DNA from: a virus
Lineage: Duplodnaviria > Heunggongvirae > Uroviricota > Caudoviricetes
Reading direction: 5' to 3' (one strand)
Length of the DNA: 17,540 nt
IMG/VR virus record: IMGVR_UViG_3300042934_000306
The stretch's first letter is position 1; each line of letters begins with the position of its first letter. The notes below the pieces were generated by a model, which was not told the origin of the DNA, did no database searches, and saw nothing but the letters and a program-made list of their open reading frames with translations. Positions 1-14,990 of this stretch are shown in pieces. Made by a program: the position numbers and the translations under genes.

Positions 1-612
1 ATGCCGGTGCTTAAACCGTTTATGGACATGGTTAAAAAGTACGGTACGCCATACATCGGCGGCGCGTTCTGTACTGACAGGCTAAAACTCACCCCTTTCA
101 CGAAATATTGCGATGACCATTTTGGGCGAGGGAATTACATCACATGGCTGGGTATTCGTGCGGACGAACCCCGTAGGCTGAAACCGAAACCGGGCGTCCG
201 GTATCTTGCCGAGCTGTCAGATTTTGATAAGTCGGATGTTATCCGGTGGTGGCGAAAACAACCTTTTGATTTGCAAATCCCGGAGCACCTCGGGAACTGT
301 GTTTTTTGCATCAAAAAGTCAACGCAAAAGCTGGGGCTTGCATGTAAAGACGAACCTGGTCTGATGCGAATTTTTAATGAGCTGGTTACAGGCAAACACG
401 TCAGGGATGGTCATCGCAGAACAGGTAAAGACGTTATGTACCGTGGTCACCTGACGCTTGACGGGATTGCCAGAATGTATGCCGACAGCGACTACAGAAA
501 TTTGTATCAGGCGATGGTGCAGGCCAAGCGGTTTGATACTGGTTCGTGTTCCGAATCATGTGAAATCTGGGGTGACCAATTGGAGTTGAGATTCGAAGAG
601 GTAGTGGCATGA
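1..612 (+). CDS. PAPS reductase-like (phosphoadenosine phosphosulfate reductase family) protein, 5'-truncated by window edge
   Basis: ORF open from base 1; GIRADEP segment resembles the G-L-R-R-E-Q-S motif of CysH-type PAPS reductases, plus CxxC; stop TGA 610..612 overlaps next start (ATGA). Family call from memory. Confidence 0.55.
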   Translation: MPVLKPFMDMVKKYGTPYIGGAFCTDRLKLTPFTKYCDDHFGRGNYITWLGIRADEPRRLKPKPGVRYLAELSDFDKSDVIRWWRKQPFDLQIPEHLGNCVFCIKKSTQKLGLACKDEPGLMRIFNELVTGKHVRDGHRRTGKDVMYRGHLTLDGIARMYADSDYRNLYQAMVQAKRFDTGSCSESCEIWGDQLELRFEEVVA

Positions 613-1088
613 CAAACAAAATTGACTATCAAAAGCTTCGTGAAATTGCTGAAAAAACAAAAATTGCTGGTGAAGCGCCTGTAATGCCTTTCGATCAGCG
701 AATTAATGCGCTTAACGATTTTATGAAGCACTTTTCGCCAGATATCGCGTTGGCATTATTGGATGAAGTTAAACGCCTGGAAGACACAAATATCGATGCT
801 ATGTGCCGAATTGCAGAGGTGGAGGCGCGGGAAATAAAACCAGCCAAAGGCGAAGTTCTTGTCGTTGTCTCTGGTTTTACTGGTTGCGGGAAAAGCGCCA
901 TTGCCGGGGAAATAGAAATTGCGATGAAAGCTATTGGCGTGCCGGTTCAATGGACTAATGGCGATGCAGAAAAGCATATGACCGGCGCTGACTGGCTGAC
1001 AGCGATTGAGATGTACAAACCAACTGTGCGCATCGTGGAAGTTAATGTGCCACGCGCCGCTGGCATTCGCATCAAAGAAGGTGAGTAA
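609..1088 (+). CDS. hypothetical phage protein (159 aa), possibly Ead/Ea22-like
   Basis: ATG at 609 overlaps upstream stop; uninterrupted 159-codon ORF; no motif recognised with certainty. Confidence 0.5.
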   Translation: MTNKIDYQKLREIAEKTKIAGEAPVMPFDQRINALNDFMKHFSPDIALALLDEVKRLEDTNIDAMCRIAEVEAREIKPAKGEVLVVVSGFTGCGKSAIAGEIEIAMKAIGVPVQWTNGDAEKHMTGADWLTAIEMYKPTVRIVEVNVPRAAGIRIKEGE

Positions 1089-1264
1089 TGCGTGTGGCAT
1101 GTATCGGCTTGTTACCGTACCCGACTCGTTTTTGGGCTTCTGCGCTAATTGCAAAGCCACATGTCCTGATGGCTGACAACATCATCCCGGCACCAAAGCG
1201 CCGCCATACCGGTATTGCAGCGGCACGACGAGCAGCAAAGAGACGCAGGAGAGCAAAGCGATGA
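1088..1264 (+). CDS. small basic protein (58 aa), Arg/Lys-rich C-terminus
   Basis: ATG at 1088 overlaps upstream TAA (TAATG); translated by hand as MRVACIGLLPYPTRFW...RRAAKRRRRAKR; stop TGA overlaps next ATG at 1261. Not in the supplied track (under 60 aa). Confidence 0.25.
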   Translation: MRVACIGLLPYPTRFWASALIAKPHVLMADNIIPAPKRRHTGIAAARRAAKRRRRAKR

Positions 1265-1437
1265 AAAACCGTAAGGCAAAACGACTTTTTTTACAGCGAC
1301 CTGTGCGTGTGGTGGAGCTGGTTATTAGCAACCATAAGATAGCGGTACTCCATCCATTTGGTCAGGTGGCTTTTGCCGCAAAGCGTAAGCCTACTGCGTC
1401 ACAGAACAGGCGGAAGAAAGGGTACGCAGTAAGATGA
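1261..1437 (+). CDS. small basic protein (58 aa), MKNRKAK N-terminus
   Basis: Hand-translated MKNRKAKRLFLQRPVRVVELVISNHKIAVLHPFGQVAFAAKRKPTASQNRRKKGYAVR; ATGA overlap at both ends; paralogous ends with the 1434..1622 ORF. Confidence 0.3.
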   Translation: MKNRKAKRLFLQRPVRVVELVISNHKIAVLHPFGQVAFAAKRKPTASQNRRKKGYAVR

Positions 1438-1622
1438 AAAACCGTAAAGCAAAGATTCTGTTAGTTCGTAGAAACGCTCCTGGCGTCTGGCAGTGGGTGA
1501 GACTCAGCAACCGACGGATGGGGTTGATGAAATATTACGGGATGATGGATTGTGGTTTTTGCAAAAAGCCCAGCGCGGCGCAAAACCGCTGGAGAAACCA
1601 TTTGCGCACTAAAGGAGAGTGA
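1434..1622 (+). CDS. small basic protein (62 aa), MKNRKAK N-terminus
   Basis: Track ORF MKNRKAKILLVRR...AQNRWRNHLRTKGE; its 3' end carries AAGGAGAG, the SD for the next gene. Confidence 0.35.
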   Translation: MKNRKAKILLVRRNAPGVWQWVRLSNRRMGLMKYYGMMDCGFCKKPSAAQNRWRNHLRTKGE

Positions 1623-1623
1623 T

Positions 1624-1833
1624 ATGGCTATTGCCGCAAGTTACACCATGCATCTCTATTGTGACTGCCGCCAGTGTACGGAAGGTGTATATCCAGTGCC
1701 AGACTTCGGTGAGTATATCGGTACGTCATGGTCTGGTTGTGCAAAAGAGGCCCGTAAAGACGGGTGGCGAATAAGTAAAGACAAAACACGTGCTTTTGCG
1801 CCCGGGCATAAAGTTTTGAGGATTAACAAATGA
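1624..1833 (+). CDS. small Cys-rich protein (69 aa), possible zinc-binding
   Basis: ATG 1624 preceded by AAGGAGAG at 1611..1618; MAIAASYTMHLYCDCRQCTEG...; stop overlaps DUF551 start (ATGA). Confidence 0.5.
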   Translation: MAIAASYTMHLYCDCRQCTEGVYPVPDFGEYIGTSWSGCAKEARKDGWRISKDKTRAFAPGHKVLRINK

Positions 1834-2435
1834 CCACTATTACCAGAGAACAGGCACAGAAAATTATTGAAGCAGCCGATGAGGTTATTAGTGCGCTGGC
1901 CGGAACTAATGAGGATGTTCACCCTGGTAGCGATAACATGCTACGTCTGTGGGATGACCTGAATGACCGTCACGCGCCCCCTGAAGTTGTGCGTGAGTTG
2001 GCACGAATTGTGCTGGCATCGCTGGAAGCAGAGCCTGTAAGCCAAACTTACAACTTGCCAGAATTAATCGAAGGCATGGAAGTTTCCATTGATGTAAGCA
2101 CTTGTGATGCTGATTTAGGTAATCGCTATTTCGGCACCGTCACCGAGGCGTTAGAACTTGATACAGCCAAGAATGGTTACATCCTCCTGGTTCAGGACGC
2201 AGAGCCAAACTTCGATGTAAATGGCAACTCTCCGGTAACTCCGGATGGTTGGATAAGCTGTAGTGAGCGAATGCCCCCTCAAGATGATTGGATTTTAATT
2301 TATTCAAAGCACGGCGAGTATATGGCAGGACAGGTACAAGGGGAATACGTGGAGTTGAGCGACGGCACTTTATCGTGGTTAGGGAACGCCTTGTTCTGGA
2401 TGCCGCTACCAGAACCGCCGCAGGAGGCGAAATGA
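1830..2435 (+). CDS. DUF551-like phage protein
   Basis: C-terminal W-rich segment (DGWISCSERMPPQDDWILIY...) typical of DUF551 proteins in lambdoid early regions; assignment from memory. Confidence 0.65.
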   Translation: MTTITREQAQKIIEAADEVISALAGTNEDVHPGSDNMLRLWDDLNDRHAPPEVVRELARIVLASLEAEPVSQTYNLPELIEGMEVSIDVSTCDADLGNRYFGTVTEALELDTAKNGYILLVQDAEPNFDVNGNSPVTPDGWISCSERMPPQDDWILIYSKHGEYMAGQVQGEYVELSDGTLSWLGNALFWMPLPEPPQEAK

Positions 2436-2692
2436 TGGATGTAAAAGAGAAGGTTTTGCAGGTGATGCGTTCCCGGGCTGCCCTGCAAGATAAAGCTCTC
2501 GGCGGGGAATATCCATTCAGGATGGCAACCTGGAATCTGCGGTTGGCAATGGAGAAGGCATTTCCTGATGAAGAATGGCGTTCGGCAGATTTGCGCAAAA
2601 TTCTTATGGAGCTGGCTAAAGACGGAACAGTATCCAAAGATACCCATGCCAGCCGGATTGGTCAGGCGGTATGGAGACTGGAGGTGAGGTAA
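2432..2692 (+). CDS. hypothetical protein (about 86 aa)
   Basis: ATGATG at 2432/2435 after GGAGG at 2423..2427, overlapping the upstream TGA; the track ORF 2288..2692 start is in-frame but overlaps the upstream gene. Confidence 0.5.
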   Translation: MMDVKEKVLQVMRSRAALQDKALGGEYPFRMATWNLRLAMEKAFPDEEWRSADLRKILMELAKDGTVSKDTHASRIGQAVWRLEVR

Positions 2693-2973
2693 TGGCTAAC
2701 CTGCAACTTGCCGTTAAAGGTGAATACTTCGATGCCATGATTCGCGGGGAGAAAACGGAAGAGTATCGCCTGTGTAATGACTACTGGAATAAGCGCCTCG
2801 TTAACCGTAAGTATTACCGCCTGATTATCACAAAGGGATATCCGAAGCGCAAAGACTTCAGTCGCAGAATTGACGTCCCGTATAACGGATATGAAATAAA
2901 AACAATCACACATCCACACTTCGGTGATAAACCGGTAAAGGTGTTCGCGATAAAAGTGAAGATTAATAGCTAA
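2692..2973 (+). CDS. ASCH-domain-like protein (93 aa)
   Basis: ATG 2692 after GGAGGTGAGG, TAATG overlap with upstream stop; N-terminus MANLQLAVKGEYFDAMIRGEKTEEYR resembles the ASCH/PUA-like signature. Confidence 0.45.
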   Translation: MANLQLAVKGEYFDAMIRGEKTEEYRLCNDYWNKRLVNRKYYRLIITKGYPKRKDFSRRIDVPYNGYEIKTITHPHFGDKPVKVFAIKVKINS

Positions 2974-2996
2974 ATTTCAATTAACACGGAGTAATT

Positions 2997-3290
2997 ATGT
3001 GGCGCGGTAATAATCATGGCGGAAGTCAGATGATACTTACCGAATATACGTTCGACCACAAAACCAATAAATCACGTTCAGTATATTTGCTTCGGCACAA
3101 TAGCCGCGTAAGAAATACCGTTCTGGAGCAAAATCTGACCGTTGAAATGGATAATTTGGGAAACTTCAAGCCAACAATATCGCTTGATGATTTTCCGTGT
3201 GGTTTAAGCGAAAGAGAAGCAATGCTGAAATTAGCAGAATGGTTACAAAGATTGAGCATTGCTATTGAAGATAACTGGATTCAACCATAA
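2997..3290 (+). CDS. hypothetical protein (97 aa)
   Basis: ORF with GGAG five nt upstream of ATG 2997. Confidence 0.45.
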   Translation: MWRGNNHGGSQMILTEYTFDHKTNKSRSVYLLRHNSRVRNTVLEQNLTVEMDNLGNFKPTISLDDFPCGLSEREAMLKLAEWLQRLSIAIEDNWIQP

Positions 3291-3314
3291 TGAAAAACAG
3301 AAAGAAAGATTGCT

Positions 3315-3524
3315 ATGGCAACATTTAGTAAATTCGCAGTAATTATTATTTTATTAATTCCCCTCACTGTTACAGCAGGGGAACAGCAACATTGCACAAA
3401 AGAGAATGAACACCCTTTCATCGTTATTCAATGCGATGACGGAACGGTGACTGTGGTTAATGTAAGAAATGACCGTGTAGCTGTTTGCCGTAAAGGCGAA
3501 CCATGCAAGGAAATAAAACTATGA
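3315..3524 (+). CDS. small secreted or periplasmic protein (69 aa), signal-peptide-like N-terminus, 4 Cys
   Basis: MATFSKFAVIIILLIPLTVTAGEQQ... hydrophobic leader followed by a Cys-containing mature part; stop overlaps next start (ATGA). Confidence 0.5.
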   Translation: MATFSKFAVIIILLIPLTVTAGEQQHCTKENEHPFIVIQCDDGTVTVVNVRNDRVAVCRKGEPCKEIKL

Positions 3525-4270
3525 CAAGAATCACTAAAGAGCGTATTTCAGATATTATTTCCCGTATCGAAATGTATGGTCACGGTGCTGGATACACAGC
3601 AGATGAAGTATTGGAGCTTGCCAAAATAGCTTTAGCGCCTTGCAAGGATGGTAAAGCTATGACACTGATTGACTTGTTAGTGAAGGAATTATCTAAGGGG
3701 CGTGGATGGCCTGATGGAAAAGATTTTTGCCATCTATCCATTACGATGCCAGGTAGTAGTCGCGCTACGGTTCTTTTTGGTACGCGCCATAAAAATTACC
3801 AATCATCAAAGAATTATTCCATTGATGGCATTATTTGCGATATCAGTGACCTTGATCGCAGTGCGTTTACATCGGTTGTCACTCGTGAACAGTATGAAGC
3901 AGCTCGCATAGCGTCTCAGAAAGTTAAGTCTGAAAGTAAGGCTTACAAGTTAGATTTTGAGCAATGGCTGGAACAGCAACGCGGGAAAATCGATGTGGAC
4001 TGCGGTTGTGTGTCTGCGGAAACATTCATGCACTGGTTGCGGGTAGCTTATGAGGCTGGGAACCATCCGGATTTTCCGGATAGTTCCCAACAAGCGCCCA
4101 GGAAAAGCGTAAAAACCACTCTGGAAAGAGGCTATCTTGAGGCCGCATTAAAGATTAAGCCGGGCCATACACTAGGCGTCATTGATGCCATGTTGGTTCA
4201 TGAAATGGCGAAGGCTTTATTGCCGCTGGTGGCTGATAAACATGAGGCGGACCATGCCAACGAAAGCTGA
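3521..4270 (+). CDS. hypothetical phage protein (249 aa)
   Basis: ATG 3521 with AGGA upstream and ATGA coupling to the preceding ORF; the alternative in-frame ATG at 3503 would overlap the previous gene by 22 nt. Confidence 0.6.
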   Translation: MTRITKERISDIISRIEMYGHGAGYTADEVLELAKIALAPCKDGKAMTLIDLLVKELSKGRGWPDGKDFCHLSITMPGSSRATVLFGTRHKNYQSSKNYSIDGIICDISDLDRSAFTSVVTREQYEAARIASQKVKSESKAYKLDFEQWLEQQRGKIDVDCGCVSAETFMHWLRVAYEAGNHPDFPDSSQQAPRKSVKTTLERGYLEAALKIKPGHTLGVIDAMLVHEMAKALLPLVADKHEADHANES

Positions 4271-4538
4271 GTTACAGGCGCGCATAGAGATTCTTGAAAA
4301 AGAGAATGCGAGTCTAAAAGGAATGCTGGCGCGGGCGGAAAGGGAATTATCAGGCAAATTATTGCCAGAAGAGCTGCCACCAGCAGATATACCTGATCGA
4401 GTGTCCTGGTGGATGAAGTATTTCCGTGCACCGTGGGAGGCGTTTTGGTGCTACGACCATCGCAGATGGTGTGATGAGCTTGATAGCAGTTTCCCCTATT
4501 TTGCGGAAGGGAACTCTTGCCCTGAATGTAGGAGTTAA
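4254..4538 (+). CDS. hypothetical coiled-coil protein (94 aa)
   Basis: ATG 4254 after GAGG; the track ORF from 4182 overlaps the upstream gene; heptad-like AELQARIEILEKENASLKGMLARAEREL. Confidence 0.45.
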   Translation: MPTKAELQARIEILEKENASLKGMLARAERELSGKLLPEELPPADIPDRVSWWMKYFRAPWEAFWCYDHRRWCDELDSSFPYFAEGNSCPECRS

Positions 4539-4586
4539 TGATGACCGGCGATAACGCGTTTGCACCAAAGGTGTCTCTTTAATGTA

Positions 4587-4606
4587 TACTGTATAAATGA
4601 ACAGTA
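4587..4606 (+). promoter_or_regulatory. LexA (SOS) box TACTGTATAAATGAACAGTA overlapping a TATAAA -10-like hexamer, 20 bp upstream of humD
   Basis: Exact CTGT-N8-ACAG with the flanking TA..TA of the enterobacterial consensus, read directly from the sequence. Confidence 0.8.
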
Positions 4607-4625
4607 TTATTGAGGTGAAAACGCT

Positions 4626-5015
4626 ATGGGCTTCCCTTCTCCTGCGGCGGACTATGTTGAAAGCAGAATTTCTCTTGATCAGCAACTAATCAGGCATCCA
4701 TCAGCGACATACTTCATGCGGGCGGCAGACAGCCATCACCGTGAGGGAATATTGCAGGGTGCTTTGCTGGTGGTTGATTCTTCGCTTACTCCAGTTGATG
4801 GTTCGCTGCTTGTGTGCGCTATGGAGGGTGAATATCGCATAAAGAGATACCGAAAGTATCCGCGCCAGCACCTGGAGGATTTAAGCACCGGGAAGAAAGA
4901 GGCGTTACCAGTAGATGACGATGGTTACACGGGTAGTAATGCTGTTTTTGGTGTGATCACTCATGTCATCAATGATGCCCGAAGTGGGGAGTTTGATGAT
5001 TGTCCGGTCATTTAA
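4626..5015 (+). CDS. humD: UmuD-prime-like protein (HumD-type), lacks the cleavable N-terminal tail
   Basis: Starts MGFPSPAADYVESRISLDQQLIRHPSATYF, aligning to UmuD from Gly25 (the RecA-mediated cleavage product); GAGGTGA SD; sits immediately upstream of phd-doc as in P1. Confidence 0.8.
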   Translation: MGFPSPAADYVESRISLDQQLIRHPSATYFMRAADSHHREGILQGALLVVDSSLTPVDGSLLVCAMEGEYRIKRYRKYPRQHLEDLSTGKKEALPVDDDGYTGSNAVFGVITHVINDARSGEFDDCPVI

Positions 5016-5056
5016 GCTGCAAAGTGCTGGTGCTTTATGCCTGTGAAGTTTATGAT

Positions 5057-5078
5057 TGTGTACACATAACGAGTACAC
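5057..5078 (+). promoter_or_regulatory. putative Phd/Doc operator: TGTGTACACA palindrome plus GAGTACAC half-repeat just upstream of phd
   Basis: Perfect 10-bp palindrome 5057..5066 and a related 8-mer 5071..5078 ending 10 nt before the phd ATG; matches what I recall of the P1 phd operator. Confidence 0.45.
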
Positions 5079-5087
5079 GAGGTGTTT

Positions 5088-5309
5088 ATGCAGTCCATTA
5101 ACTTCCGTACCGCGCGCGGCAACCTTTCTGAATTGCTCAACAATGTTGAAGCCGGGGAAGAGGTTGAAATCACCCGCAGAGGCCGTGAACCAGCAGTAAT
5201 TGTCAGCAAGGCTACTTTCGAAGCCTACAAAAAGGCGGCGCTGGATGCTGAATTTGCATCCCTGTTTGACACCCTGGACTCCACCAACAAGGAACTGGTT
5301 AACCGATAA
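5088..5309 (+). CDS. phd: Phd antitoxin (prevent-host-death)
   Basis: [73 protein letters not shown] is near-identical to P1 Phd as I remember it; 73 aa; stop overlaps doc ATG. Confidence 0.9.
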
Positions 5310-5689
5310 TGAGGCATATATCACCGGAAGAACTTATTGCGCTTCATGATGCGAATATAAGCCGCTACGGCGGCCTGCCGGGAATGTCAGATCCGGGTAG
5401 GGCAGAGGCCATTATCGGGAGAGTTCAGGCCAGAGTTGCCTACGAAGAGATCACCGACCTTTTCGAAGTCTCCGCAACCTACCTGGTGGCTACTGCGAGA
5501 GGGCATATATTCAATGATGCCAATAAGCGTACCGCGCTAAACAGTGCGCTGCTATTTCTACGCCGTAACGGTATACAGGTATATGATTCTCCCGTGCTGG
5601 TGGAACTTGCGGTGGGGGCTGCAACTGGTGAAATCCCCGTATCTTCAGTAGCGGAAAAACTACGTGAACTATATGGTTCCAATATTTGA
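5309..5689 (+). CDS. doc: Doc toxin (death-on-curing, Fic-fold kinase)
   Basis: [40 protein letters not shown]... matches P1 Doc; includes the [11 protein letters not shown] Fic-like motif; 126 aa. Confidence 0.9.
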
Positions 5690-5692
5690 AAA

Positions 5693-5718
5693 GAAGCCCG
5701 CTCAACCAAGCGGGCTTC
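5693..5718 (-). terminator. intrinsic terminator: perfect 10-bp stem GAAGCCCGCT/AGCGGGCTTC, 6-nt loop, between convergent doc and the minus-strand operon
   Basis: On the minus strand the hairpin is followed directly by TTTTC; it lies 7 nt after the stop of the 5725..6819 gene. Confidence 0.55.
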
Positions 5719-5724
5719 CTACTA

Positions 5725-6819
5725 TCACTCAATGATTTTTTCTGCTGTCAGCCAGCTAATTTCTTGCCTGTCTTTCGGCGGTTTTAGCATGTGGGCGTAT
5801 TCAGCGACATTCCCCCACGGAATTGTTTTTGCCCACTCAACGATAGCATTGTGATCTGCAGTGAAGAGTGGAATGGTGTGCGATTTCAACCACTCTAATG
5901 TTGTAACGCCATGTTTTTTGGCGTGGTGCTGTGCATGATGCTTGGCTATCACTCGTAATGGCATTGTCCATTCACTGCCATCAGGCATTGAAAAACGCAT
6001 TGTTTTCGGCATATCTGATTCAAGAACAGCCTCCCTAATACCAGGGAACTCACCAAGAATCATACGACGGTAGTCATCACTATTTCGCCCGCCATACCTT
6101 TCGGCAAAATGATCAAGATATTCTTGGGTAATAAATGGTGAATCCTCAGCACTCAGCTTAATGGCTTTATAGACACCACTCGGATTATCTTCAGCTAAAG
6201 CACGCCCATGATGAGAATCATAGAAAAATCCTATTTCCTCTGGTGACGGAATTGAAGTGAGCAATATGCGTGAATCACCACTAGTCATGCTTGCCCACAC
6301 AATACTGTATGCCCGATCGCTTATATGTGCGGAATCCACAATAATGAATAACAGATGGTCGGCGTAGTGACCTGCAATGCTATCTTCATAGTTAAGGCGG
6401 TAGTTACAAAAGCACATTCCCCAAAATTCATTGAACATCAGACCGCTATCACCGACCTTAAAATACTCAATGATAAAAGGTTGTTTTTTCAGTAATGCCT
6501 CCCAACATTGCCACACATATGCAACAATTCCTTTTTTGCAAGCATTTGATTTTGGATAAACAATTACTGTCCGGGAATCAGGATACATAATCGTATAAAG
6601 GGTACTAATAACAGCAAGCACTTGCGGTCGTCCGATCCCATGCGGAGTTGTGACAGTAGCTTTTGCATTATTGGGCTGTATAGCTTCAACAATTTGTTGT
6701 TGCTGGTGGCTTAAATCAATATCAAACAATTCTTTTGCTGCCAGAACCCAATTGTCTTTATATTTCTCCACCAGCGACAGCCAGCGCGGATCTTTATAAA
6801 TATTGCTCTTAGTCGCCAT
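5725..6819 (-). CDS. terminase-large-subunit (PacB-like) paralog, ATPase motifs degenerate, nuclease domain absent (365 aa)
   Basis: Start taken at ATG 6819 (MATKSNIYKDPRW...) after AAGGAAGTGG, overlapping the upstream stop. Aligns by eye to the 502-aa PacB-like protein in this window (SHQQQQI, FYDSHH, ESPF-T, GEFP blocks); Walker A is PHGIGRP rather than GHGTGKS, Walker B is IIVDSA rather than LILDEA. Confidence 0.65.
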   Translation of the reverse strand: MATKSNIYKDPRWLSLVEKYKDNWVLAAKELFDIDLSHQQQQIVEAIQPNNAKATVTTPHGIGRPQVLAVISTLYTIMYPDSRTVIVYPKSNACKKGIVAYVWQCWEALLKKQPFIIEYFKVGDSGLMFNEFWGMCFCNYRLNYEDSIAGHYADHLLFIIVDSAHISDRAYSIVWASMTSGDSRILLTSIPSPEEIGFFYDSHHGRALAEDNPSGVYKAIKLSAEDSPFITQEYLDHFAERYGGRNSDDYRRMILGEFPGIREAVLESDMPKTMRFSMPDGSEWTMPLRVIAKHHAQHHAKKHGVTTLEWLKSHTIPLFTADHNAIVEWAKTIPWGNVAEYAHMLKPPKDRQEISWLTAEKIIE

Positions 6820-7576
6820 CTGCCACTTCCTTAACTTCTTCTTTGGCCTGCTCTGCAATCGCCGCACGGCATTTGGCCCTTGCTGTAGCGATTGCTTCAG
6901 CACGCACATCATCAGGAATCGTTGACGTGATATACATATCCAGTTCTTCGGCGCGGAACACTGTTTGGTCCAGATATTCGCGTAGCATCCAGGTAAATTC
7001 GAAATCACACGCGATAATCTCTGCGCTACCCTCTGCACCATTTGGGAAATGAATAAATGCCTGTTTAGCCAAACCGATAACACGACATGCGGTTGCCAAA
7101 ACAGCGACAACCAGGTTTACATTTTCACACGCTACGGGCTGATTAACACCGGAGATTACTCCATTTAACTGTCGGTTATATGGAAGGTAGTTTGAGATGC
7201 GTTCTACGCGCCATGTGCCAGTCAGGCTGCCATTTTTAAAGATAATTGGTGTAACGGATAGCCCAAGCTCGCGTATAAGTCGTTGCGCTATAGCAGGATC
7301 ATTAAACAGGTCTAATGCTACACATTCGAAAGACTGTGCAAGGGCAAACAGTTCTTCCAGAGAGTAGTCTTTGCCCCTGGCGGTGATGTAACGACGAACG
7401 CCGCTGTCTGCATCACTCCATATAGCTACGCCATGCTCTTCATTCAGCTCTTCATTAAAGCCGAGATACGTCATGATAGTGCGTTCAATCGTGTCAAACG
7501 GCAGTGACATGTCGGCGTTAACAGCCACCAGCAGGCCATTACGCAAGCGGTATTGAATTGTTTTGGTGCTTTCCAT
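6809..7576 (-). CDS. hypothetical protein (255 aa), translationally coupled to the terminase paralog
   Basis: GGAG upstream of ATG 7576; its stop TAA sits inside ATGGCGACTAA, the start of the next gene; acidic C-terminal tail; no recognised motif. Confidence 0.55.
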   Translation of the reverse strand: MESTKTIQYRLRNGLLVAVNADMSLPFDTIERTIMTYLGFNEELNEEHGVAIWSDADSGVRRYITARGKDYSLEELFALAQSFECVALDLFNDPAIAQRLIRELGLSVTPIIFKNGSLTGTWRVERISNYLPYNRQLNGVISGVNQPVACENVNLVVAVLATACRVIGLAKQAFIHFPNGAEGSAEIIACDFEFTWMLREYLDQTVFRAEELDMYITSTIPDDVRAEAIATARAKCRAAIAEQAKEEVKEVADGD

Positions 7577-7582
7577 GTCAAA

Positions 7583-8233
7583 TCACTCCACTACAAACCA
7601 GTCACAAGCCAGTAAATCATCAACATACGGCAACCAAACGCTGTCCATATTTTGTGCATCTTTCAATACGAAATGGTCACCATAAGGAACCTGAATGTCG
7701 TGTAAATTGACGCTCCCAGCGAGAACTAACCAGCAGAATTGCTTTTCGCCTTTCCACTCGCGTCGAGCTACATTTTTTCCTTCTTTCAGCCACATTAGCG
7801 CATCAGAAAAGTCGGCTGCTTCAAGGTCGATTTCCTCTTGCTGGGTAGTGGTACCACCAGCAGAAATAGTTACACTCCCGGTAATATTAATCATCACGCC
7901 GTTGTCATCCGTAATGATGACCGTGGTTCCATTTTCGGAGGCGTCGTTAACCAGGCCATAGCATTCCTCAAATGGTTTCTCCGGGGCATAGAACAGATAA
8001 CCGTTTTCATAAACGATCAGATACCCGCCAGTTTTTGGTCGGTGTTTTTGTAAAAACATTGCGTCAACACAAACTGTTGCCCCTTTTGGTTCAACGAGTT
8101 CAATGCAGCCCCAAAGTGGGGCATCAGTTACTCCGAAAATAACAACATTTTTGATTTTCGATGCACTAACGTTTTTGTGAGCTTTGTATTTGGGAAGGAA
8201 CTTAAAAAGCTCTTTCGTTGCCATGTAATTCAT
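7583..8233 (-). CDS. two-domain protein (216 aa): unknown N-terminal domain fused to a DUF2829/Tad2-like C-terminal domain
   Basis: AGGAAAGG SD before ATG 8233; C-terminal FSDALMWLKEGKNVARREW ... LPYVDDLLACDWFVVE fits the signature I associate with DUF2829; not verified by HMM. Confidence 0.5.
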   Translation of the reverse strand: MNYMATKELFKFLPKYKAHKNVSASKIKNVVIFGVTDAPLWGCIELVEPKGATVCVDAMFLQKHRPKTGGYLIVYENGYLFYAPEKPFEECYGLVNDASENGTTVIITDDNGVMINITGSVTISAGGTTTQQEEIDLEAADFSDALMWLKEGKNVARREWKGEKQFCWLVLAGSVNLHDIQVPYGDHFVLKDAQNMDSVWLPYVDDLLACDWFVVE

Positions 8234-8247
8234 AGCCTTTCCTCTGC

Positions 8248-8742
8248 TTAAAACTTTGCGTACTGAAGCGGTGTGCGCTTGATTTCAAAGTGGTCTTCCG
8301 ATGTGCTACCAAAGCCACCAGCACCACGTTCCGTTTCGTTGAGTTCCTCAACCTCGACTAGTGAGACTTGTTCAACACGCTCAAAAATGCCTTGCATGAC
8401 AGCCATTCCAGGCTTGAGACAAACGCCTTCCCCGCCGGGATCAGTAATCAGTTTTGCCATGATTTCACCGCGATAATCTGAGTCGATAATTCCTACGCAG
8501 TTAGCCAGGCGAGTATGTTTTTTGCAGCCCAATCCGGAGCGCGGATAGAGTTTCAGACACCAGCCGGGCGGGATCTCCATAGCCAGTCCGGTGTACACCC
8601 ACCAGCTTGAGGAAATTGCACCATTGCTATCGACGCATGGTTTTATTTCAACAGCCTCAAAATCCATCGCCGCCGATCCGGAGGTGGCATAAGCTGGAAG
8701 TTTTGCTGCCGGATGTAGGCGTTTCACTTTTACGTAAATCAT
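8248..8742 (-). CDS. dut: dUTPase (trimeric Dut family) with an insertion between motifs I and II
   Basis: All five Dut motifs readable: YATSGSAAMD, PRSGLG, GIIDSDYRGE, AVMQGIF, RGAGGFGSTS; ATGA coupling to the upstream gene. Confidence 0.85.
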   Translation of the reverse strand: MIYVKVKRLHPAAKLPAYATSGSAAMDFEAVEIKPCVDSNGAISSSWWVYTGLAMEIPPGWCLKLYPRSGLGCKKHTRLANCVGIIDSDYRGEIMAKLITDPGGEGVCLKPGMAVMQGIFERVEQVSLVEVEELNETERGAGGFGSTSEDHFEIKRTPLQYAKF

Positions 8743-9215
8743 TGTTTTTTAGCTCTCTGCGTGAAGGTGTAAACCCGACGTTTGATATGTGGAACGGTAG
8801 GAACAGGAAGACAGGAACTTTCAATAACTCCTTGCTCCTCCAGCGATCGCACCGCCCGCAAGAACTGCGACGTGTCGCCGCCAAACTGGCGGGCATAGGT
8901 GCTGCCGTTATGAAGTATTTGAGCTATTACCCGAGCTTTTGTCTGGCTGTCACGATATGCGAATAGCCGCACGGCCTCTTCTGGCGCAATCGCTAACTGA
9001 TAGCCTTTCCCGGCACGGTGTCGAATGAATCCATGCGCCAGTAGGTTTTTGAGTTCGTTACGAGTGCGAACAGTTCCGTAATCCAGGAAGTGTGGATTGA
9101 TAACGACTGGCTTAAACCATTCCGTAGGTGCTTTAGCTAATAGAGCTAACAGCTTCCCGGATAATTCTGGATAGGAAGACGGGTAACAATTCAGAGATGG
9201 GTAATAAGTTTTCAC
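8739..9215 (-). CDS. hypothetical protein (158 aa)
   Basis: GTG start at 9215 after a GGGGG SD-like run, overlapping the upstream stop (GTGA); no motif recognised. Confidence 0.5.
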   Translation of the reverse strand: MKTYYPSLNCYPSSYPELSGKLLALLAKAPTEWFKPVVINPHFLDYGTVRTRNELKNLLAHGFIRHRAGKGYQLAIAPEEAVRLFAYRDSQTKARVIAQILHNGSTYARQFGGDTSQFLRAVRSLEEQGVIESSCLPVPTVPHIKRRVYTFTQRAKKQ

Positions 9216-9629: not shown

Positions 9630-10658
9630 TTATAAATCCATCAGGCGGCTATTAGCCCCCACAGACACGCCGCCACGGCGAAGATACCGCATAAGTGTTT
9701 CCGGTTTCTTCCAGGTTCCTTCCTGCATGATCTCCACCATAGACACCTGCTTTTCAGCCATATCAATAGCGGCCCCGACGCGTGCACTATGCCCGGTCCA
9801 CGTCCGGTATCTTCCTTTGTTTGGCGTAGCATCTCTTTTATTCAGCAACACCCAGGCGTCGCTGAATATTTTCTCCATTGCAGGTGCAGTAAGGGGCGTT
9901 GTCGTGAGCCTGGCCTTATTGCTACGGTGTATCGGCGGGAACAGCACTGCGTCAGGATGTTCGCGAAGCCCTGAAACATCCAGCCAGTCATTCAGCACAG
10001 CGGTAGTGCGACGGGAAAGCACCTTATCAAGCCCGGCGGCGGTCGTTATTGTCTTCGTGTGTGAAATATGTAGCGTGACAGTGTCACCTGTTTGGTCCAG
10101 ATCTCCTACACGAATACGCGATATTTCCGACATACGCATCAGCGTATTGTATGCAACAAAGAGAAAAGCCCGGTTGCGCAGGTCCACCAGCCGTTCTGAC
10201 CTGGACAGCAGGACGTCGAGCAGTTTCAGATCGTCCCACCGCAGCGGTATAGCCTGGCCTGTTCGTTCGCCTTTTTCAGTTGCCGCTTCGCGCCGGATGC
10301 GCCGCATAGCCAGAGAAACACTTTTATCATCCGAAAGTGGTGGAAGGCCACAATGCGAAAGCAGCATGTTCAGCATGGCGTAGTGCTTATCAATGGTGGT
10401 CGAAGCCAGATCAGCATCATGCAGCTGAAGAAAATACTCGCGGGCCATCTCTGGTGAGATCGGGAACCAGGCGAGCTGGCGAGCGTGACACCATCTCGCC
10501 CAAGAGTGAAACACTAACCGGAGATCGCGCAAAGTATTCGGCGCGTAAGCCCCCTGGTCATTCATGAACCGCATAAAGTTTTCTGCGGCCTCCTGGTACT
10601 CTTTGCCAATGTTGCGCAGAAAACCACCGGAACTGCCAGAGATAATTAATTCACTCAT
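9630..10658 (-). CDS. dre: Cre-family tyrosine site-specific recombinase (Dre-like)
   Basis: 342 aa; aligns to P1 Cre across its length at roughly 45-50 percent identity by eye (AYNTLMRMSEISRIRVGDL, HSARVGAA, TWTGHSARVGAAIDMA blocks); adjacent rox-like site. Confidence 0.8.
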   Translation of the reverse strand: MSELIISGSSGGFLRNIGKEYQEAAENFMRFMNDQGAYAPNTLRDLRLVFHSWARWCHARQLAWFPISPEMAREYFLQLHDADLASTTIDKHYAMLNMLLSHCGLPPLSDDKSVSLAMRRIRREAATEKGERTGQAIPLRWDDLKLLDVLLSRSERLVDLRNRAFLFVAYNTLMRMSEISRIRVGDLDQTGDTVTLHISHTKTITTAAGLDKVLSRRTTAVLNDWLDVSGLREHPDAVLFPPIHRSNKARLTTTPLTAPAMEKIFSDAWVLLNKRDATPNKGRYRTWTGHSARVGAAIDMAEKQVSMVEIMQEGTWKKPETLMRYLRRGGVSVGANSRLMDL

Positions 10659-10810
10659 GAAACTATTTGACCTCTATATACAGATGACGCTACGCGAAAA
10701 ATATAAAAATGACAGGGTAGCTATAAGTTAATTTTCAAAATACAAGCCTTTGATTCGAGGCACGTATTTTCAGTGATGTCAACACTGTTCATCTACACAT
10801 GATTATAGCC

Positions 10811-10842
10811 TAACTTTAAATAATGCCAATTATTTAAAGTTA
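10811..10842. other. rox-type recombination site: TAACTTTAAATAAT-GCCA-ATTATTTAAAGTTA (perfect 14-bp inverted repeats, 4-bp asymmetric spacer)
   Basis: Read directly; lies 153 bp upstream of the recombinase start; identical to the rox sequence as I recall it from phage D6. Confidence 0.8.
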
Positions 10843-12117: not shown

Positions 12118-13626
12118 TTATATATCCAGATCTGGCATTTCGATATCCGCCAGAACCTGATCTCGGAAAGTTGCCATTTCGGCACCAATATCTTCATTAG
12201 CAGGCACATAGTCCACCAGCATAGTGAAGCAGTAGGTATCCCATCGGTCAGGCGATTTGATGTTTAGCTTTTGCCGCATGTGCTCTTTGCGCATCATCGC
12301 CATTTTCCCTTCCTCATTCAGTAAAAAGGGGATTTTTGACGCTTGCTCTGCCGTTTTAGGGTCACTGTCTATCCGCATACGCCCTGACTTTATGGCATCA
12401 CGCGCCATAATATTTGCGTAGGCACGCTGATTAACAAATCGCTCCCTGTCTTTGTTCGCAAACATGGGTTTTCCCCACCGAATACGTACCGGGTTCGCAC
12501 CACGACGCACCAACTGCGCACACGTATCAGAACCAAAACCATCGGCATCAACCGCGATTGTTATATTCGGGTATTTTTCCGGCGTACATTCGTTATATAT
12601 GAAGTCAGCAAAGGCCAATGGGTCCATAGTGCCAGGCATCTCCATTACCTTAAAGTTAACAACGCGCCGCTTATCCCTGTGACCAGATACCTTGCAGATG
12701 TTGAGGACCGACTTATCTCGCCCATTACCAACGTCAGCCGTTGCCACCCATCCCCAGTTTTTCTCCAACAACACCTTGCGGCGAGCTGCGCGATCGCATT
12801 CATCACGACCAAGCAAATAGCCGTTAATTTCTCGTGGGAACTGACCAAGCACCTTGACCATGTACTCAATAGAATCGCGCCCGCCATATTCCAGAAGCTT
12901 CTGCTTGATGAATTGTGGTGTGACGAACGGTGATTCTTCCGAGTTAAGAACAATTGCTGTCCAGATCCCTTTCGGGTTGTCTGGGGTTTTTGCTTGAGAA
13001 TGGTGCGAATCGTAGAAATAACCACTTGGCCTTGTTGGCTGGGATAGCATCAACATCCGGTTATCTTCTTCAGTAAGAGCACCGGTCATTACGCCGATCG
13101 CCTTATCAGATATACCAGATGCTTCATCCAGAATTAGAAGCAAATGTGCCGCATGTTCCCCCGCCAGCGCTTCTTCGTTGCCGAGTCGATAACCTTTGCA
13201 GAGAACTTCCCAAATCCCCTTACGGGAGCGCTCATAAAACATGGTGTCAGAGAGGACAAAATAGGTCTGCAACCACCCATGACGCTTAACTGCATTCGCC
13301 CAATACTGTTTAACGTATTTGAATACGCCTGTTTTTACCTGGCCTATCTTGTTAGCAACAATGATGACACGGGCATCGGGGAACAGGATCATAAAAATCA
13401 ACAGCAACATCGCGGTAAGGGACGACTTCCCCGTTCCGTGTCCGGACGTGACGGTCGTCCTACTCCCCGTTTCCTGCACTGACTGAATGATCTGCTGCTG
13501 CTGGTGGGAGGGGAACATCCCAAAAATATCGACAACAGCCTGGGTAAAGTTGTAGCGGTATTTGATTACCATATCGCGCCAGCGTGGATCGCTGGTGACG
13601 CATTTAATCTTGCGCCCGCCAGCCAT
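12118..13626 (-). CDS. pacB: terminase large subunit (PacB-like)
   Basis: 502 aa; Walker A SGHGTGKSS, Walker B LLLILDEASG, C-terminal Asp-rich nuclease-like region (ATADVGNGRD, AVDADGFG); GGAGGA SD; TAATG coupling to pacA. Confidence 0.85.
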   Translation of the reverse strand: MAGGRKIKCVTSDPRWRDMVIKYRYNFTQAVVDIFGMFPSHQQQQIIQSVQETGSRTTVTSGHGTGKSSLTAMLLLIFMILFPDARVIIVANKIGQVKTGVFKYVKQYWANAVKRHGWLQTYFVLSDTMFYERSRKGIWEVLCKGYRLGNEEALAGEHAAHLLLILDEASGISDKAIGVMTGALTEEDNRMLMLSQPTRPSGYFYDSHHSQAKTPDNPKGIWTAIVLNSEESPFVTPQFIKQKLLEYGGRDSIEYMVKVLGQFPREINGYLLGRDECDRAARRKVLLEKNWGWVATADVGNGRDKSVLNICKVSGHRDKRRVVNFKVMEMPGTMDPLAFADFIYNECTPEKYPNITIAVDADGFGSDTCAQLVRRGANPVRIRWGKPMFANKDRERFVNQRAYANIMARDAIKSGRMRIDSDPKTAEQASKIPFLLNEEGKMAMMRKEHMRQKLNIKSPDRWDTYCFTMLVDYVPANEDIGAEMATFRDQVLADIEMPDLDI

Positions 13627-14990
13627 TAATCATCCTCCGGCGGTTCTATCGCGATATCATCATCTCCGGCGTCATACCCTGCATCAGATGCATCATAATC
13701 ACCGTAAATTTCAGCCGTTGCCGAAGGGTCAATATCCAGCTCTTCGTCGTTGGCCTCGAATTCTCCAGCTTTACGCTCGCCATTGCGGTCGTAATCTCCG
13801 CACCCCAATTCTTCAACAATGGTTGCCACATCCGCCCGGCGCTCTGCCAGCCATTGCGGATGGTTAGCCTGAAGCGTTGCAAACTCCCTTGCCTCTTTGT
13901 CCAGCTGTTCATCATCAACATCATTGACGTCAGAAACAGGTGTTTCGAGAAGAGTGATAGCTTTCGCCGCGCGCGCCGCGAGGATAGCCGGGACGCTGAC
14001 CCCCTGGCGCTCGATGTATTCAGCAACACCGATATCATCCAGTTCCTCGCGCTCACGCATACGTATAGCGGCGGCGATAACTCTGGCAGCGCGTGCGTCA
14101 GCGCCAATGCGATATTCAATCTCTTTGCCACGCTGTTCGGCCTGTAGGCGTGCTAATTCGAGTTTTTCTCTGGCCTCAGCCTCTTTGAATGCTTGCTGGC
14201 GAGCGCTCTGACGAAGCTTTTCATCCCCCTGTCGCAGCTTTTGTTCGGACTGATATATAGCTGCCAACCTACTGATAAAATCATTCATGTAGTAGGCCGC
14301 GTCACTGATTAGACCGAGAAGGCGCTGCCCAGGGTGCATTCCTTCTGGCTCTTTATCGCCCAAGGCGTCTATTTCCGCCTGTAGACGTTCGGCCTCCTGA
14401 TCAACAATGCTTTGATACTGAAGTGCGCGCTCTTGCGCCATTTGAATTGCTAACCGCAGGTGTTCTTCTGCGCCGTTCTTCATCATATCGCGAGCCACAT
14501 TCGTAGTGGGCAATGTGGCACGCTGCACAGCACCGCCAGGGATCATTGCTGAAGATCCCTCAATTTTTGGGGCGCTTTTATCTTCTTCGGGGATCATTTT
14601 CGCCATTTTTTCGCGCAATGATCTCCTGACAGATTCTTTTATCTCATTGTTATTATTTGCATTATTTTCATGATCCGAAGTTTTCTTTCTCGGCATACTT
14701 CGGAAAGAACCTGCGCCCTGCGAATTGTCAATTTCTGTAAATTTTGTTTTTTCTGCACCCTCTTCCAGCTTTTTTGTTGCTCTTCCCGCCCGTTTTTTTT
14801 CAGGTGATTTGGTGCTTTTTTTTGTTGTCTTTACCTGCGACCGCACCTCATTTTTTTTCATATTGAGATGCTTTCTGGCTGTATTGAAGCTAAGGCCATG
14901 CTCCTCACAGTATTCCTTTACAGTGATCCCTTTTTCTTCACGCAACGCTATAAAGCGGGCGCGGTGCTCCTCCCAATTAACCAGACTCAT
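13626..14990 (-). CDS. pacA: terminase small subunit / pac-recognition protein (PacA-like)
   Basis: Immediately upstream of and coupled to pacB; N-terminal HTH-like segment (ITVKEYCEEHGLSFNTARKHL), long coiled-coil middle, acidic C-terminus; GATC cluster inside the 5' coding region as in P1 pac. Confidence 0.65.
   Translation of the reverse strand: MSLVNWEEHRARFIALREEKGITVKEYCEEHGLSFNTARKHLNMKKNEVRSQVKTTKKSTKSPEKKRAGRATKKLEEGAEKTKFTEIDNSQGAGSFRSMPRKKTSDHENNANNNNEIKESVRRSLREKMAKMIPEEDKSAPKIEGSSAMIPGGAVQRATLPTTNVARDMMKNGAEEHLRLAIQMAQERALQYQSIVDQEAERLQAEIDALGDKEPEGMHPGQRLLGLISDAAYYMNDFISRLAAIYQSEQKLRQGDEKLRQSARQQAFKEAEAREKLELARLQAEQRGKEIEYRIGADARAARVIAAAIRMREREELDDIGVAEYIERQGVSVPAILAARAAKAITLLETPVSDVNDVDDEQLDKEAREFATLQANHPQWLAERRADVATIVEELGCGDYDRNGERKAGEFEANDEELDIDPSATAEIYGDYDASDAGYDAGDDDIAIEPPEDD
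14541..14675. other. candidate pac site: five Dam (GATC) sites, mostly in TGATCC/GGATCA context, within 135 bp of the pacA 5' coding region
   Basis: GATC at 14541, 14555, 14592, 14620, 14672 flanking an AT-rich core; P1 pac is a cluster of TGATCA/G hexamers inside pacA. Confidence 0.4.

Follow-up and report, generated by a model that had tools for sequence, protein, structure and literature searches.

The stretch of DNA analysed here (referred to as the window) comprises 17,540 nucleotides (nt) of the Caudoviricetes virus record IMGVR_UViG_3300042934_000306. The subject of this study is a pair of overlapping genes on its minus strand, at 5725-7576, of which the downstream one encodes a degenerate relative of the large terminase PacB, here termed the pseudo-terminase, and the upstream one a homologue of IsaA of phage P1. 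Both open reading frames (ORFs) exist as stated in the preliminary description of this sequence, since they appear in the ORF list and were called by the Prokaryotic Genome Annotation Pipeline (PGAP, RefSeq) in a 99.9% identical plasmid (WP_000201931.1 and WP_000446290.1). The pseudo-terminase gene (5725..6819, minus strand; phrog_5902, E 2e-165) starts with the ATG at 6819 and thus encodes 364 amino acids (aa), not 365 aa as first given. Database labels of both genes are hypothetical, and the pseudo-terminase is sometimes mislabelled 'terminase large subunit'.

The N-terminal domain of the pseudo-terminase (N-domain, aa 1-260; 6040..6819, minus strand) has the ATPase fold of the large terminase subunit (TerL) and carries PHGIGRP and LLFIIVD at its Walker sites. 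Residues 8-260 were 38% identical to the PacB of the window (BLASTP, E 4e-58), confirming the conserved blocks that had been reported between the two proteins, and identities of 33-38% were obtained with PacB of P1, P7, D6 and SJ46 (tblastn, E 1e-46 to 1e-51). The homology to P1/D6-type PacB extends along the entire ATPase domain (33-39% identity, E up to 4e-58), and the N-terminal helices, the Q motif, SxP[ST], FYDSHH (within GYFYDSHH), NPxG, GGRxSxxY and GxFP are common to both proteins. The AlphaFold2 model of the pseudo-terminase had a mean predicted local distance difference test (pLDDT) score of 82.9 and a predicted template modelling (pTM) score of 0.77. With this model, the best 32 PDB matches of Foldseek were all TerL ATPase structures (E 7e-8 to 9e-6), including Sf6 gp2, P74-26, T4 gp17, D6E, HK97 and the Avs3-bound PhiV-1 terminase.

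The catalytic lysine of Walker A is replaced, as previously claimed, PHGIGRP standing in the window for GHGTGKS of PacB; other alleles have GIGQK, GIGHK, GIGET or GIGRA, none of them with an in-register lysine. For Walker B, the earlier pairing of IIVDSA with LILDEA was one residue out of register, but the degeneracy of the site was confirmed: the ungapped alignment places LLFIIVD against LLLILDE of PacB, with the magnesium-binding aspartate changed to valine and the catalytic glutamate to aspartate. Other alleles read IIVTE, IIVAE, IIVMD, FIVIN or FIVVN. The Walker A lysine and the Walker B aspartate were absent in all six alleles examined, two of which retain the glutamate; since no allele keeps either residue, the conclusion of a degenerate ATP site is strengthened, and judging from these alignments the degeneracy is a trait of the whole pseudo-terminase family. 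The structure prediction gave a TerL ATPase fold, and in the alignment with PacB the P-loop lysine was absent and the ATP site not intact. The RNase H-like nuclease domain is missing as well, as the protein stops at residue 364 and its tail comes from another family. Three defining features of a terminase were tested and found lacking, and therefore the pseudo-terminase cannot be a working terminase; with the modelled fold, the Foldseek matches and an intact PacB in the same window, it represents a terminase-ATPase-like structure in a non-terminase protein.

The tail domain (aa 261-364 and the stop codon; 5725..6039, minus strand) corresponds to the C-terminal part of phrog_17928 (positions 399-486). 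A profile of the last ~95 residues recovered 1281 homologues at E ≤ 0.01, nearly all of them standalone proteins of ~96-110 aa without a Pfam domain. The last ~100 residues of the pseudo-terminase align over their full length with this standalone family, and the near-invariant MPDGS-W-P, IA, PLF, W-A and W are present. In contrast to its standalone relatives, the domain is fused here to a terminase-derived one, and the helix that is usually R/Y-rich is His-rich, with the cluster KHHAQHHAKKH. In the AlphaFold2 model the tail folds as a beta-hairpin plus helices. The preliminary description of an unrelated His-rich tail in place of the nuclease was supported in this respect (8 His in 104 residues; hhalign probability 0.4%), but the tail is no orphan sequence, given its 1281 homologues. 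It was also considered as a decayed nuclease domain, which was rejected because the probability of 0.4% was obtained against the C-terminal half of PacB itself. No PDB or Pfam relative of the tail family was found, 3ic3 at E 1.5 being the sole match and taken as noise. By its alignments, the tail is a borrowed, widespread small phage domain occupying the place of the nuclease domain.

Standalone genes for the tail domain were located in early regions in four of the four prophage loci inspected: between genes for a DnaB-type helicase and NinB in three Enterobacter prophages, and after YqaJ, RecT and a UvrD helicase in one of Acinetobacter. The P1-like Cronobacter phage JK004 (L007:4001-4297) has a standalone 98-aa tail domain two genes downstream of a DnaB-type helicase. 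In Xanthomonas CP2-like phages (Tenjo, L008:1888-3303) the domain forms the C-terminus of a 471-aa DUF1351-like coiled-coil protein, which sits within a recombinase-exonuclease-SSB module. A natural pseudo-terminase without the tail was also observed (L022:3001-3801; Logan SRR26379202, 85-kb contig): it has 266 aa, consists of the N-domain only and lies in the same operon. This variant is rare, 76% identical to the N-domain of the window, and follows a 249-aa IsaA after a 10-nt gap, with no overlap. Its existence indicates that the fusion of N-domain and tail is not obligatory.

The 255-aa partner, previously called unknown, is by sequence the homologue of P1 IsaA (6809..7576, minus strand; phrog_2326, E 9.7e-134, positions 1-258 of 264), with 48% identity to the P1 protein over 88% of the query and 96.9% to D6 orf113. 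It comprises two alpha/beta domains and, towards the C-terminus, a long helix; the acidic tail formerly attributed to it is present but only modestly acidic, with 9 D/E and 6 K/R in the last 35 residues. Its structure model was of moderate quality (pLDDT 73), and fold searches returned weak, uninformative matches. The family is tiny, with 40 relatives (cluster representatives) in a profile search of 1.84 billion proteins, and none of the ten relatives checked had a Pfam domain tied to IsaA. The gene isaA is non-essential for the lytic growth of P1 (PMC10695390), and the region 'isaA-IS1-isaB' (RD-2) is known to vary among P1-like phage-plasmids (PMC6906374, PMC9603915).

The junction of the two genes (6809..6832, minus strand) contains an AAGGAAG Shine-Dalgarno sequence at 6832-6826, the ATG of the pseudo-terminase gene at 6819-6817 and the TAA of isaA at 6811-6809. 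The genes overlap by 11 nt (ATGGCGACTAA), with AAGGAAG placed 6 nt 5' of the ATG, in agreement with the translational coupling proposed before; overlaps of 8 and 14 nt occur in other subfamilies. The pseudo-terminase is thus predicted to be translationally coupled to the upstream isaA. With high confidence, the 364-aa protein is a pseudoenzyme of PacB origin, with a small phage domain as its fused tail and with IsaA as its coupled partner.

The window comes from a phage-plasmid of the D6 type, within the P1 family. Positions 5000-8800 (3.8 kb) were 100% identical to the Salmonella plasmid CP123702.1 and 99.9% to the Escherichia coli plasmid pE2863-2. The gene order is that of phage D6, with phd-doc and, on the opposite strand, a Dre-like recombinase, two small ORFs, dut, a DUF2829 protein and the isaA homologue, and it continues further on with a C1-like repressor, pacB and pacA. 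The intact PacB (502 aa; 12118..13626, minus strand) is annotated as terminase, has Walker A GHGTGKS and Walker B LILDEA, gives a weak Terminase_6N match and is 61% identical to P1 PacB across the ATPase domain; on these features it is the presumptive functional large terminase and represents the source lineage of the pseudo-terminase. PacA (454 aa; 13626..14990, minus strand), annotated as 'DNA pacase A subunit' and with N-terminal helix-turn-helix matches, is the small-terminase-type subunit of the pacase. The pseudo-terminase lies 5.3 kb from pacAB, outside the pac/late operon. The central statement of the preliminary description, that a second, nuclease-less terminase copy with lost ATP-site residues exists alongside intact pacAB, was therefore borne out. 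In addition, the pseudo-terminase differs from PacB in being accessory, hypervariable and not adjacent to pacA, whereas plasmids with different pseudo-terminase alleles share a 100% identical PacB; it also differs in the absence of the Walker A lysine, the Walker B aspartate and the nuclease and in its unrelated C-terminal domain.

In PLSDB, the pseudo-terminase was found in 164 plasmids (tblastn), 158 of them typed as non-mobilizable, and IsaA in 472. The pseudo-terminase plasmids inspected are phage-plasmids of ~85-100 kb from Escherichia, Salmonella, Klebsiella and Shigella, and the matches form three identity bands, at ≥ 95%, 60-80% and ~52%. The allele of the window type was detected in 92 of 5426 complete E. 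coli genomes, plasmid-borne in every case. In all eight loci inspected the pseudo-terminase is located directly 3' of isaA, with overlaps of 8, 11 or 14 nt and, once, a gap of 10 nt. Two genomic positions are occupied: the end of the recombinase-dut operon in D6-type elements, and the interval between ssb and hxr in P1-type elements. On the P1-type backbone the gene behaves as a clean gene-sized presence/absence indel from the isaA stop onward, being present in MH422554 and absent from SJ46 and Ro157c2YLVW. Phage D6 has isaA and no pseudo-terminase. Reference P1 lacks the pseudo-terminase only because IS1 and isaB occupy its place; P1 isaB was considered as a remnant of the pseudo-terminase and rejected, as the two show no similarity. 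The pair is thus a recurrent accessory module of P1/D6-type phage-plasmids, situated in P1-like elements in the known variable region 'isaA-IS1-isaB'. The P1-type pseudo-terminase is exactly where P1 carries IS1 and isaB, whereas the D6-type pair of the window stands at the end of the recombinase-dut operon, convergent with doc.

Pfam and NCBIfam scans of the pseudo-terminase and IsaA yielded nothing usable, and PADLOC-DB v2 contained no family at E ≤ 0.1 for either protein or for the DUF2829 neighbour. No searched library or paper gives the pseudo-terminase or IsaA a function, and in the literature on inactive terminase paralogues and terminase decoys no description of the pseudo-terminase family was found. 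The earlier view of the pair as an undescribed system holds in this sense of an unassigned function, but not as regards its occurrence, which is recurrent and within a known variable region.

Mosaicism was assessed by comparing the window with the D6-type plasmids CP057059.1 and NZ_CP115379.1. In both plasmids the protein identity to the window was 100% for PacB and the C1-like repressor, 99% for PacA, 98-100% for the dut and doc products and 96% for IsaA, but the pseudo-ATPase domains were 51-53% identical to that of the window and 76% to each other. These N-domain alleles of ~51-53% identity amid near-identical plasmids are new in this analysis. Where N-domains share ~52% identity, the tails of the same plasmids share 97%, and the synonymous divergence (dS) of the N-domain was ~1.4-1.5 compared with ~0.1 in isaA and the tail. 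Sliding nucleotide identity delimited a divergent block at 6872..~6105, comprising the last ~20 codons of isaA and approximately the first 240 of the pseudo-terminase, with more than 90% nucleotide identity on either side (isaA, tail, dut), except for a second divergent block over the DUF2829 gene. The G+C content of the divergent N-domain block is 41.4%, compared with 47.3% for the window. N-domain alleles are 43-54% identical to one another, compared with 61% between D6-type and P1 PacB. Because N-domains of ~52% identity occur beside near-identical PacA and PacB, the N-domain behaves like a swappable allele, independent of the terminase encoded by the same plasmid. The co-occurrence of identical PacA and PacB with pseudo-ATPase alleles of ~50% identity also weakens the idea of a decoy tuned to the resident's own terminase.

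The ratio of non-synonymous to synonymous substitution rates (dN/dS), calculated pairwise, was 0.08-0.48 for the N-domain and 0.06-0.16 for the tail; being below 1, it indicates that the pseudo-terminase is a maintained gene and not a decaying pseudogene. Between the two closer alleles, codons 81-120 of the N-domain reached a dN/dS of ~0.95. The acidic stretch at the C-terminus of IsaA (6819-6872, minus strand) changes together with the N-domain allele, as the divergent block takes in the last ~20 isaA codons; this co-variation may reflect a contact with the N-domain or mere linkage. Acidic tails of IsaA are much longer in other alleles, e.g. ...EEPSDEAVADVEAEVAEDADADA.

Seven tightly packed minus-strand genes extend from the recombinase to the pseudo-terminase, and they are predicted to form an accessory operon that begins with the Dre-like recombinase, includes dut and the Tad2-like gene and ends with isaA and the pseudo-terminase. 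A rox-like palindrome (10842..10811; 14-4-14, TAACTTTAAATAATTGGCATTATTTAAAGTTA), resembling the rox site of the D6 Dre recombinase, is found upstream of the gene for the 342-aa recombinase (10658..9630). The sole strong sigma-70-like site, TTGGCA-16-TATAAT (10829..10802, 11/12 matches in the promoter scan), overlaps it, the two elements together spanning 10802..10842 on the minus strand and probably marking where the seven-gene operon starts. At the other end, doc and the pseudo-terminase gene converge, and the 35 nt between them contain a G+C-rich hairpin (GAAGCCCGC-8 nt-GCGGGCTTC; 5693..5718), probably a bidirectional terminator; a terminator scan match falls within it, at 5711..5696 on the minus strand. 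The isaA gene of P1 comes after ssb, which has C1-repressed promoters. No P1 C1 operators were detected in the window at up to 3 mismatches, and no late-promoter or pac-operon association of the pseudo-terminase operon was seen. Immediately upstream of isaA, a 216-aa protein (7583..8233, minus strand) has a C-terminal Tad2-like/DUF2829 domain (PF11195, E 9.6e-17, 61.7 bits against a cutoff of 25), matched in full at profile positions 2-73 of 73. This protein is hypervariable, with aa identities of 61-79% among plasmids that share 98-100% in dut and doc. It is a candidate for an anti-Thoeris-type sponge of a phage-plasmid.

The most similar proteins described are T4 vs.8 and Ksap1/Ksap2, which like the pseudo-terminase are lineage-restricted, nuclease-less extra TerL-ATPase-like proteins of unknown function; vs.8, like the pseudo-terminase, shows sequence homology to the terminase of its own phage. 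However, Walker A and B are reported as kept in vs.8, and they are lost in the pseudo-terminase (10.64898/2026.04.30.721860; PMC11564622). Ksap1 has only 74 aa, and none of these proteins is described with a fused second domain, an IsaA-like coupled partner or swapped alleles. Regarding sequence similarity to vs.8 and Ksap, no Dhillonvirus or T4 records were present among the 42 matches listed of 59 (tblastn). TerL-ATPase-like non-terminases have only just been recognised, and the pseudo-terminase family differs from them by its degenerate motifs, its fusion, its fixed partner and its cassette alleles.

The terminase is one of the principal phage proteins to which bacterial immune sensors respond. 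For the pseudo-terminase, we somewhat favour a part in genetic conflict, played by binding alone, over one in packaging for the phage itself, on account of the accessory distribution, the position in variable regions, the swapping of alleles independently of PacA and PacB and the hypervariable Tad2-like neighbour. The low G+C content of the N-domain and the dN/dS of ~0.95 in its codons 81-120 likewise point to conflict rather than to housekeeping. Unable to package DNA, the protein would act by stoichiometric binding, with the fast-swapping N-domain as the specificity module and the tail, probably together with IsaA, as the constant module. By analogy, the target could, quite tentatively, be host sensors that recognise the ATPase domain of terminases, for instance Avs1-3 or those of Upx type; the Avs3-bound terminase among the fold matches was counted in favour of this. 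For strong activation of EcAvs2 and Upx the TerL ATPase domain is enough by itself, with terminase-bound ATP in the EcAvs2 interface, and Ksap1, Ksap2 and T4 vs.8 bind or trigger Avs2, their authors suggesting that they are possible anti-defence proteins (10.64898/2026.04.30.721860; PMC11564622). A mimic of this kind would occupy the sensors or divert them from PacB and, with no nucleotide binding, would be a poor activator; lost nucleotide binding together with quick allele turnover would then amount to inhibition of, or escape from, the sensors, although the direction of the effect is speculation. The complete model, in which the pseudo-terminase, acting with IsaA, disarms or diverts Avs1-3 and Upx as a terminase mimic and its N-domain alleles record an arms race with the sensors, is rather doubtful.

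Several points weigh against a conflict role directed at such sensors. The analogues Ksap1/2 and vs.8 are known as triggers of Avs2 rather than as inhibitors (10.64898/2026.04.30.721860; PMC11564622), and a sensor-binding mimic might itself set the sensor off. Avs sensors read divergent terminases by shape, which makes the need for decoy alleles 50% apart hard to see, and hypervariability could equally result from escape from recognition, competition between phages or a weakened constraint near the inactivated ATP site. The mimic model leaves the roles of IsaA and of the tail domain unexplained, and IsaA is often present without the pseudo-terminase. Both proteins came out empty in PADLOC and Pfam. 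Finally, the timing of expression was deduced only from gene order and a consensus promoter scan.

Among the alternatives, superinfection exclusion is rather improbable. Under it, the dead ATPase joins or titrates the packaging machinery of incoming related phages (small terminase, large-terminase ring or portal) as a dominant-negative subunit, different alleles being aimed at different competitors. Conservation with PacB is highest in the N-terminal helices and in the ATPase domain towards its C-terminal side, both plausible protein-contact regions, and the gene belongs to a resident plasmid-prophage, within an operon whose sigma-70-like promoter may act in the plasmid state; its allelic diversity and accessory distribution also recall those of exclusion genes. 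Nevertheless, three alleles coexist with the same PacA and PacB, so that each must spare the resident's very similar machinery. Moreover, the defence library PADLOC-DB v2 gave no match, and the position after the C1-repressed ssb in P1-type genomes suits an early lytic gene better than one expressed in the lysogen. That same position, immediately after ssb, is counted in favour of a role of the pair in early DNA transactions (replication, recombination or DNA protection), with the N-domain as a DNA or protein scaffold and the tail providing the activity of its standalone relatives. The genes for those relatives adjoin replication and recombination genes in the Enterobacter, Acinetobacter and JK004 loci inspected, and the Xanthomonas tail domain lies within its recombinase-exonuclease-SSB module. 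Such neighbourhood evidence is weak, however, because temperate phages collect many unrelated accessory genes in their early regions; furthermore, the allelic cassette behaviour of the N-domain is left unexplained and a natural variant has no tail at all. This role is considered unlikely.

The clear PacB ancestry, the PacB-like surfaces that were kept and the presence of pacAB in the same genome would also suit a regulator of the phage's own packaging, which binds PacA or PacB and times or limits pac cleavage or headful packaging. This is quite unlikely, given that the pseudo-terminase is absent in about two thirds of the IsaA-bearing relatives, including P1, D6 and SJ46, which package normally, that its allele does not co-vary with PacA and PacB, that it lies outside the late/pac operon and that isaA can be dispensed with in P1 (PMC10695390). 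A functionless relic of a pacB duplication, hitch-hiking beside isaA, could account for the lost catalytic residues, the dispensability in many relatives and the lack of a known function, but it is highly improbable and largely refuted by the selection data (N-domain dN/dS 0.08-0.48, tail 0.06-0.16): full-length ORFs are retained across alleles with N-domains 43-54% identical, and the start/stop overlap with isaA is conserved in three subfamilies and at two genomic positions, in a gene found in 164 plasmids.

With respect to the conflict role, the pseudo-terminase family offers a cleaner case of a putative terminase mimic than Ksap1/2 and T4 vs.8, whose triggering of immune sensors came to light lately and lacks an explanation, owing to its PacB origin, the loss of the ATP site in every allele, the fusion, the fixed partner and the allele swaps. 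The natural swaps in near-identical plasmids constitute ready isogenic material on what terminase mimics do, and the family resides in common, genetically tractable phage-plasmids of E. coli and Salmonella. If it is a decoy or an exclusion factor, it would represent a new principle in phage-host or phage-phage conflict and would explain one known variable region of P1-like elements. If it mimics the terminase before immune sensors, it would be the first anti-defence protein made from the protein that immunity looks for.

Additional observations concern other parts of the window. PacA has 454 aa, compared with 397 aa for P1 pacA according to the annotation coordinates, and one near-identical plasmid annotates PacA as a 326-aa version only. 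Positions 1-5000 (plus strand), through their identity to L009 1984-6271, hold small accessory genes upstream of humD/phd/doc; according to the annotation of the 99.9% identical plasmid, these include genes for a protein of the phosphoadenosine phosphosulfate reductase family and for an ASCH-domain protein. In the 99.9% identical plasmid a DUF968 protein is encoded just past the position that corresponds to the 5' end of the window.

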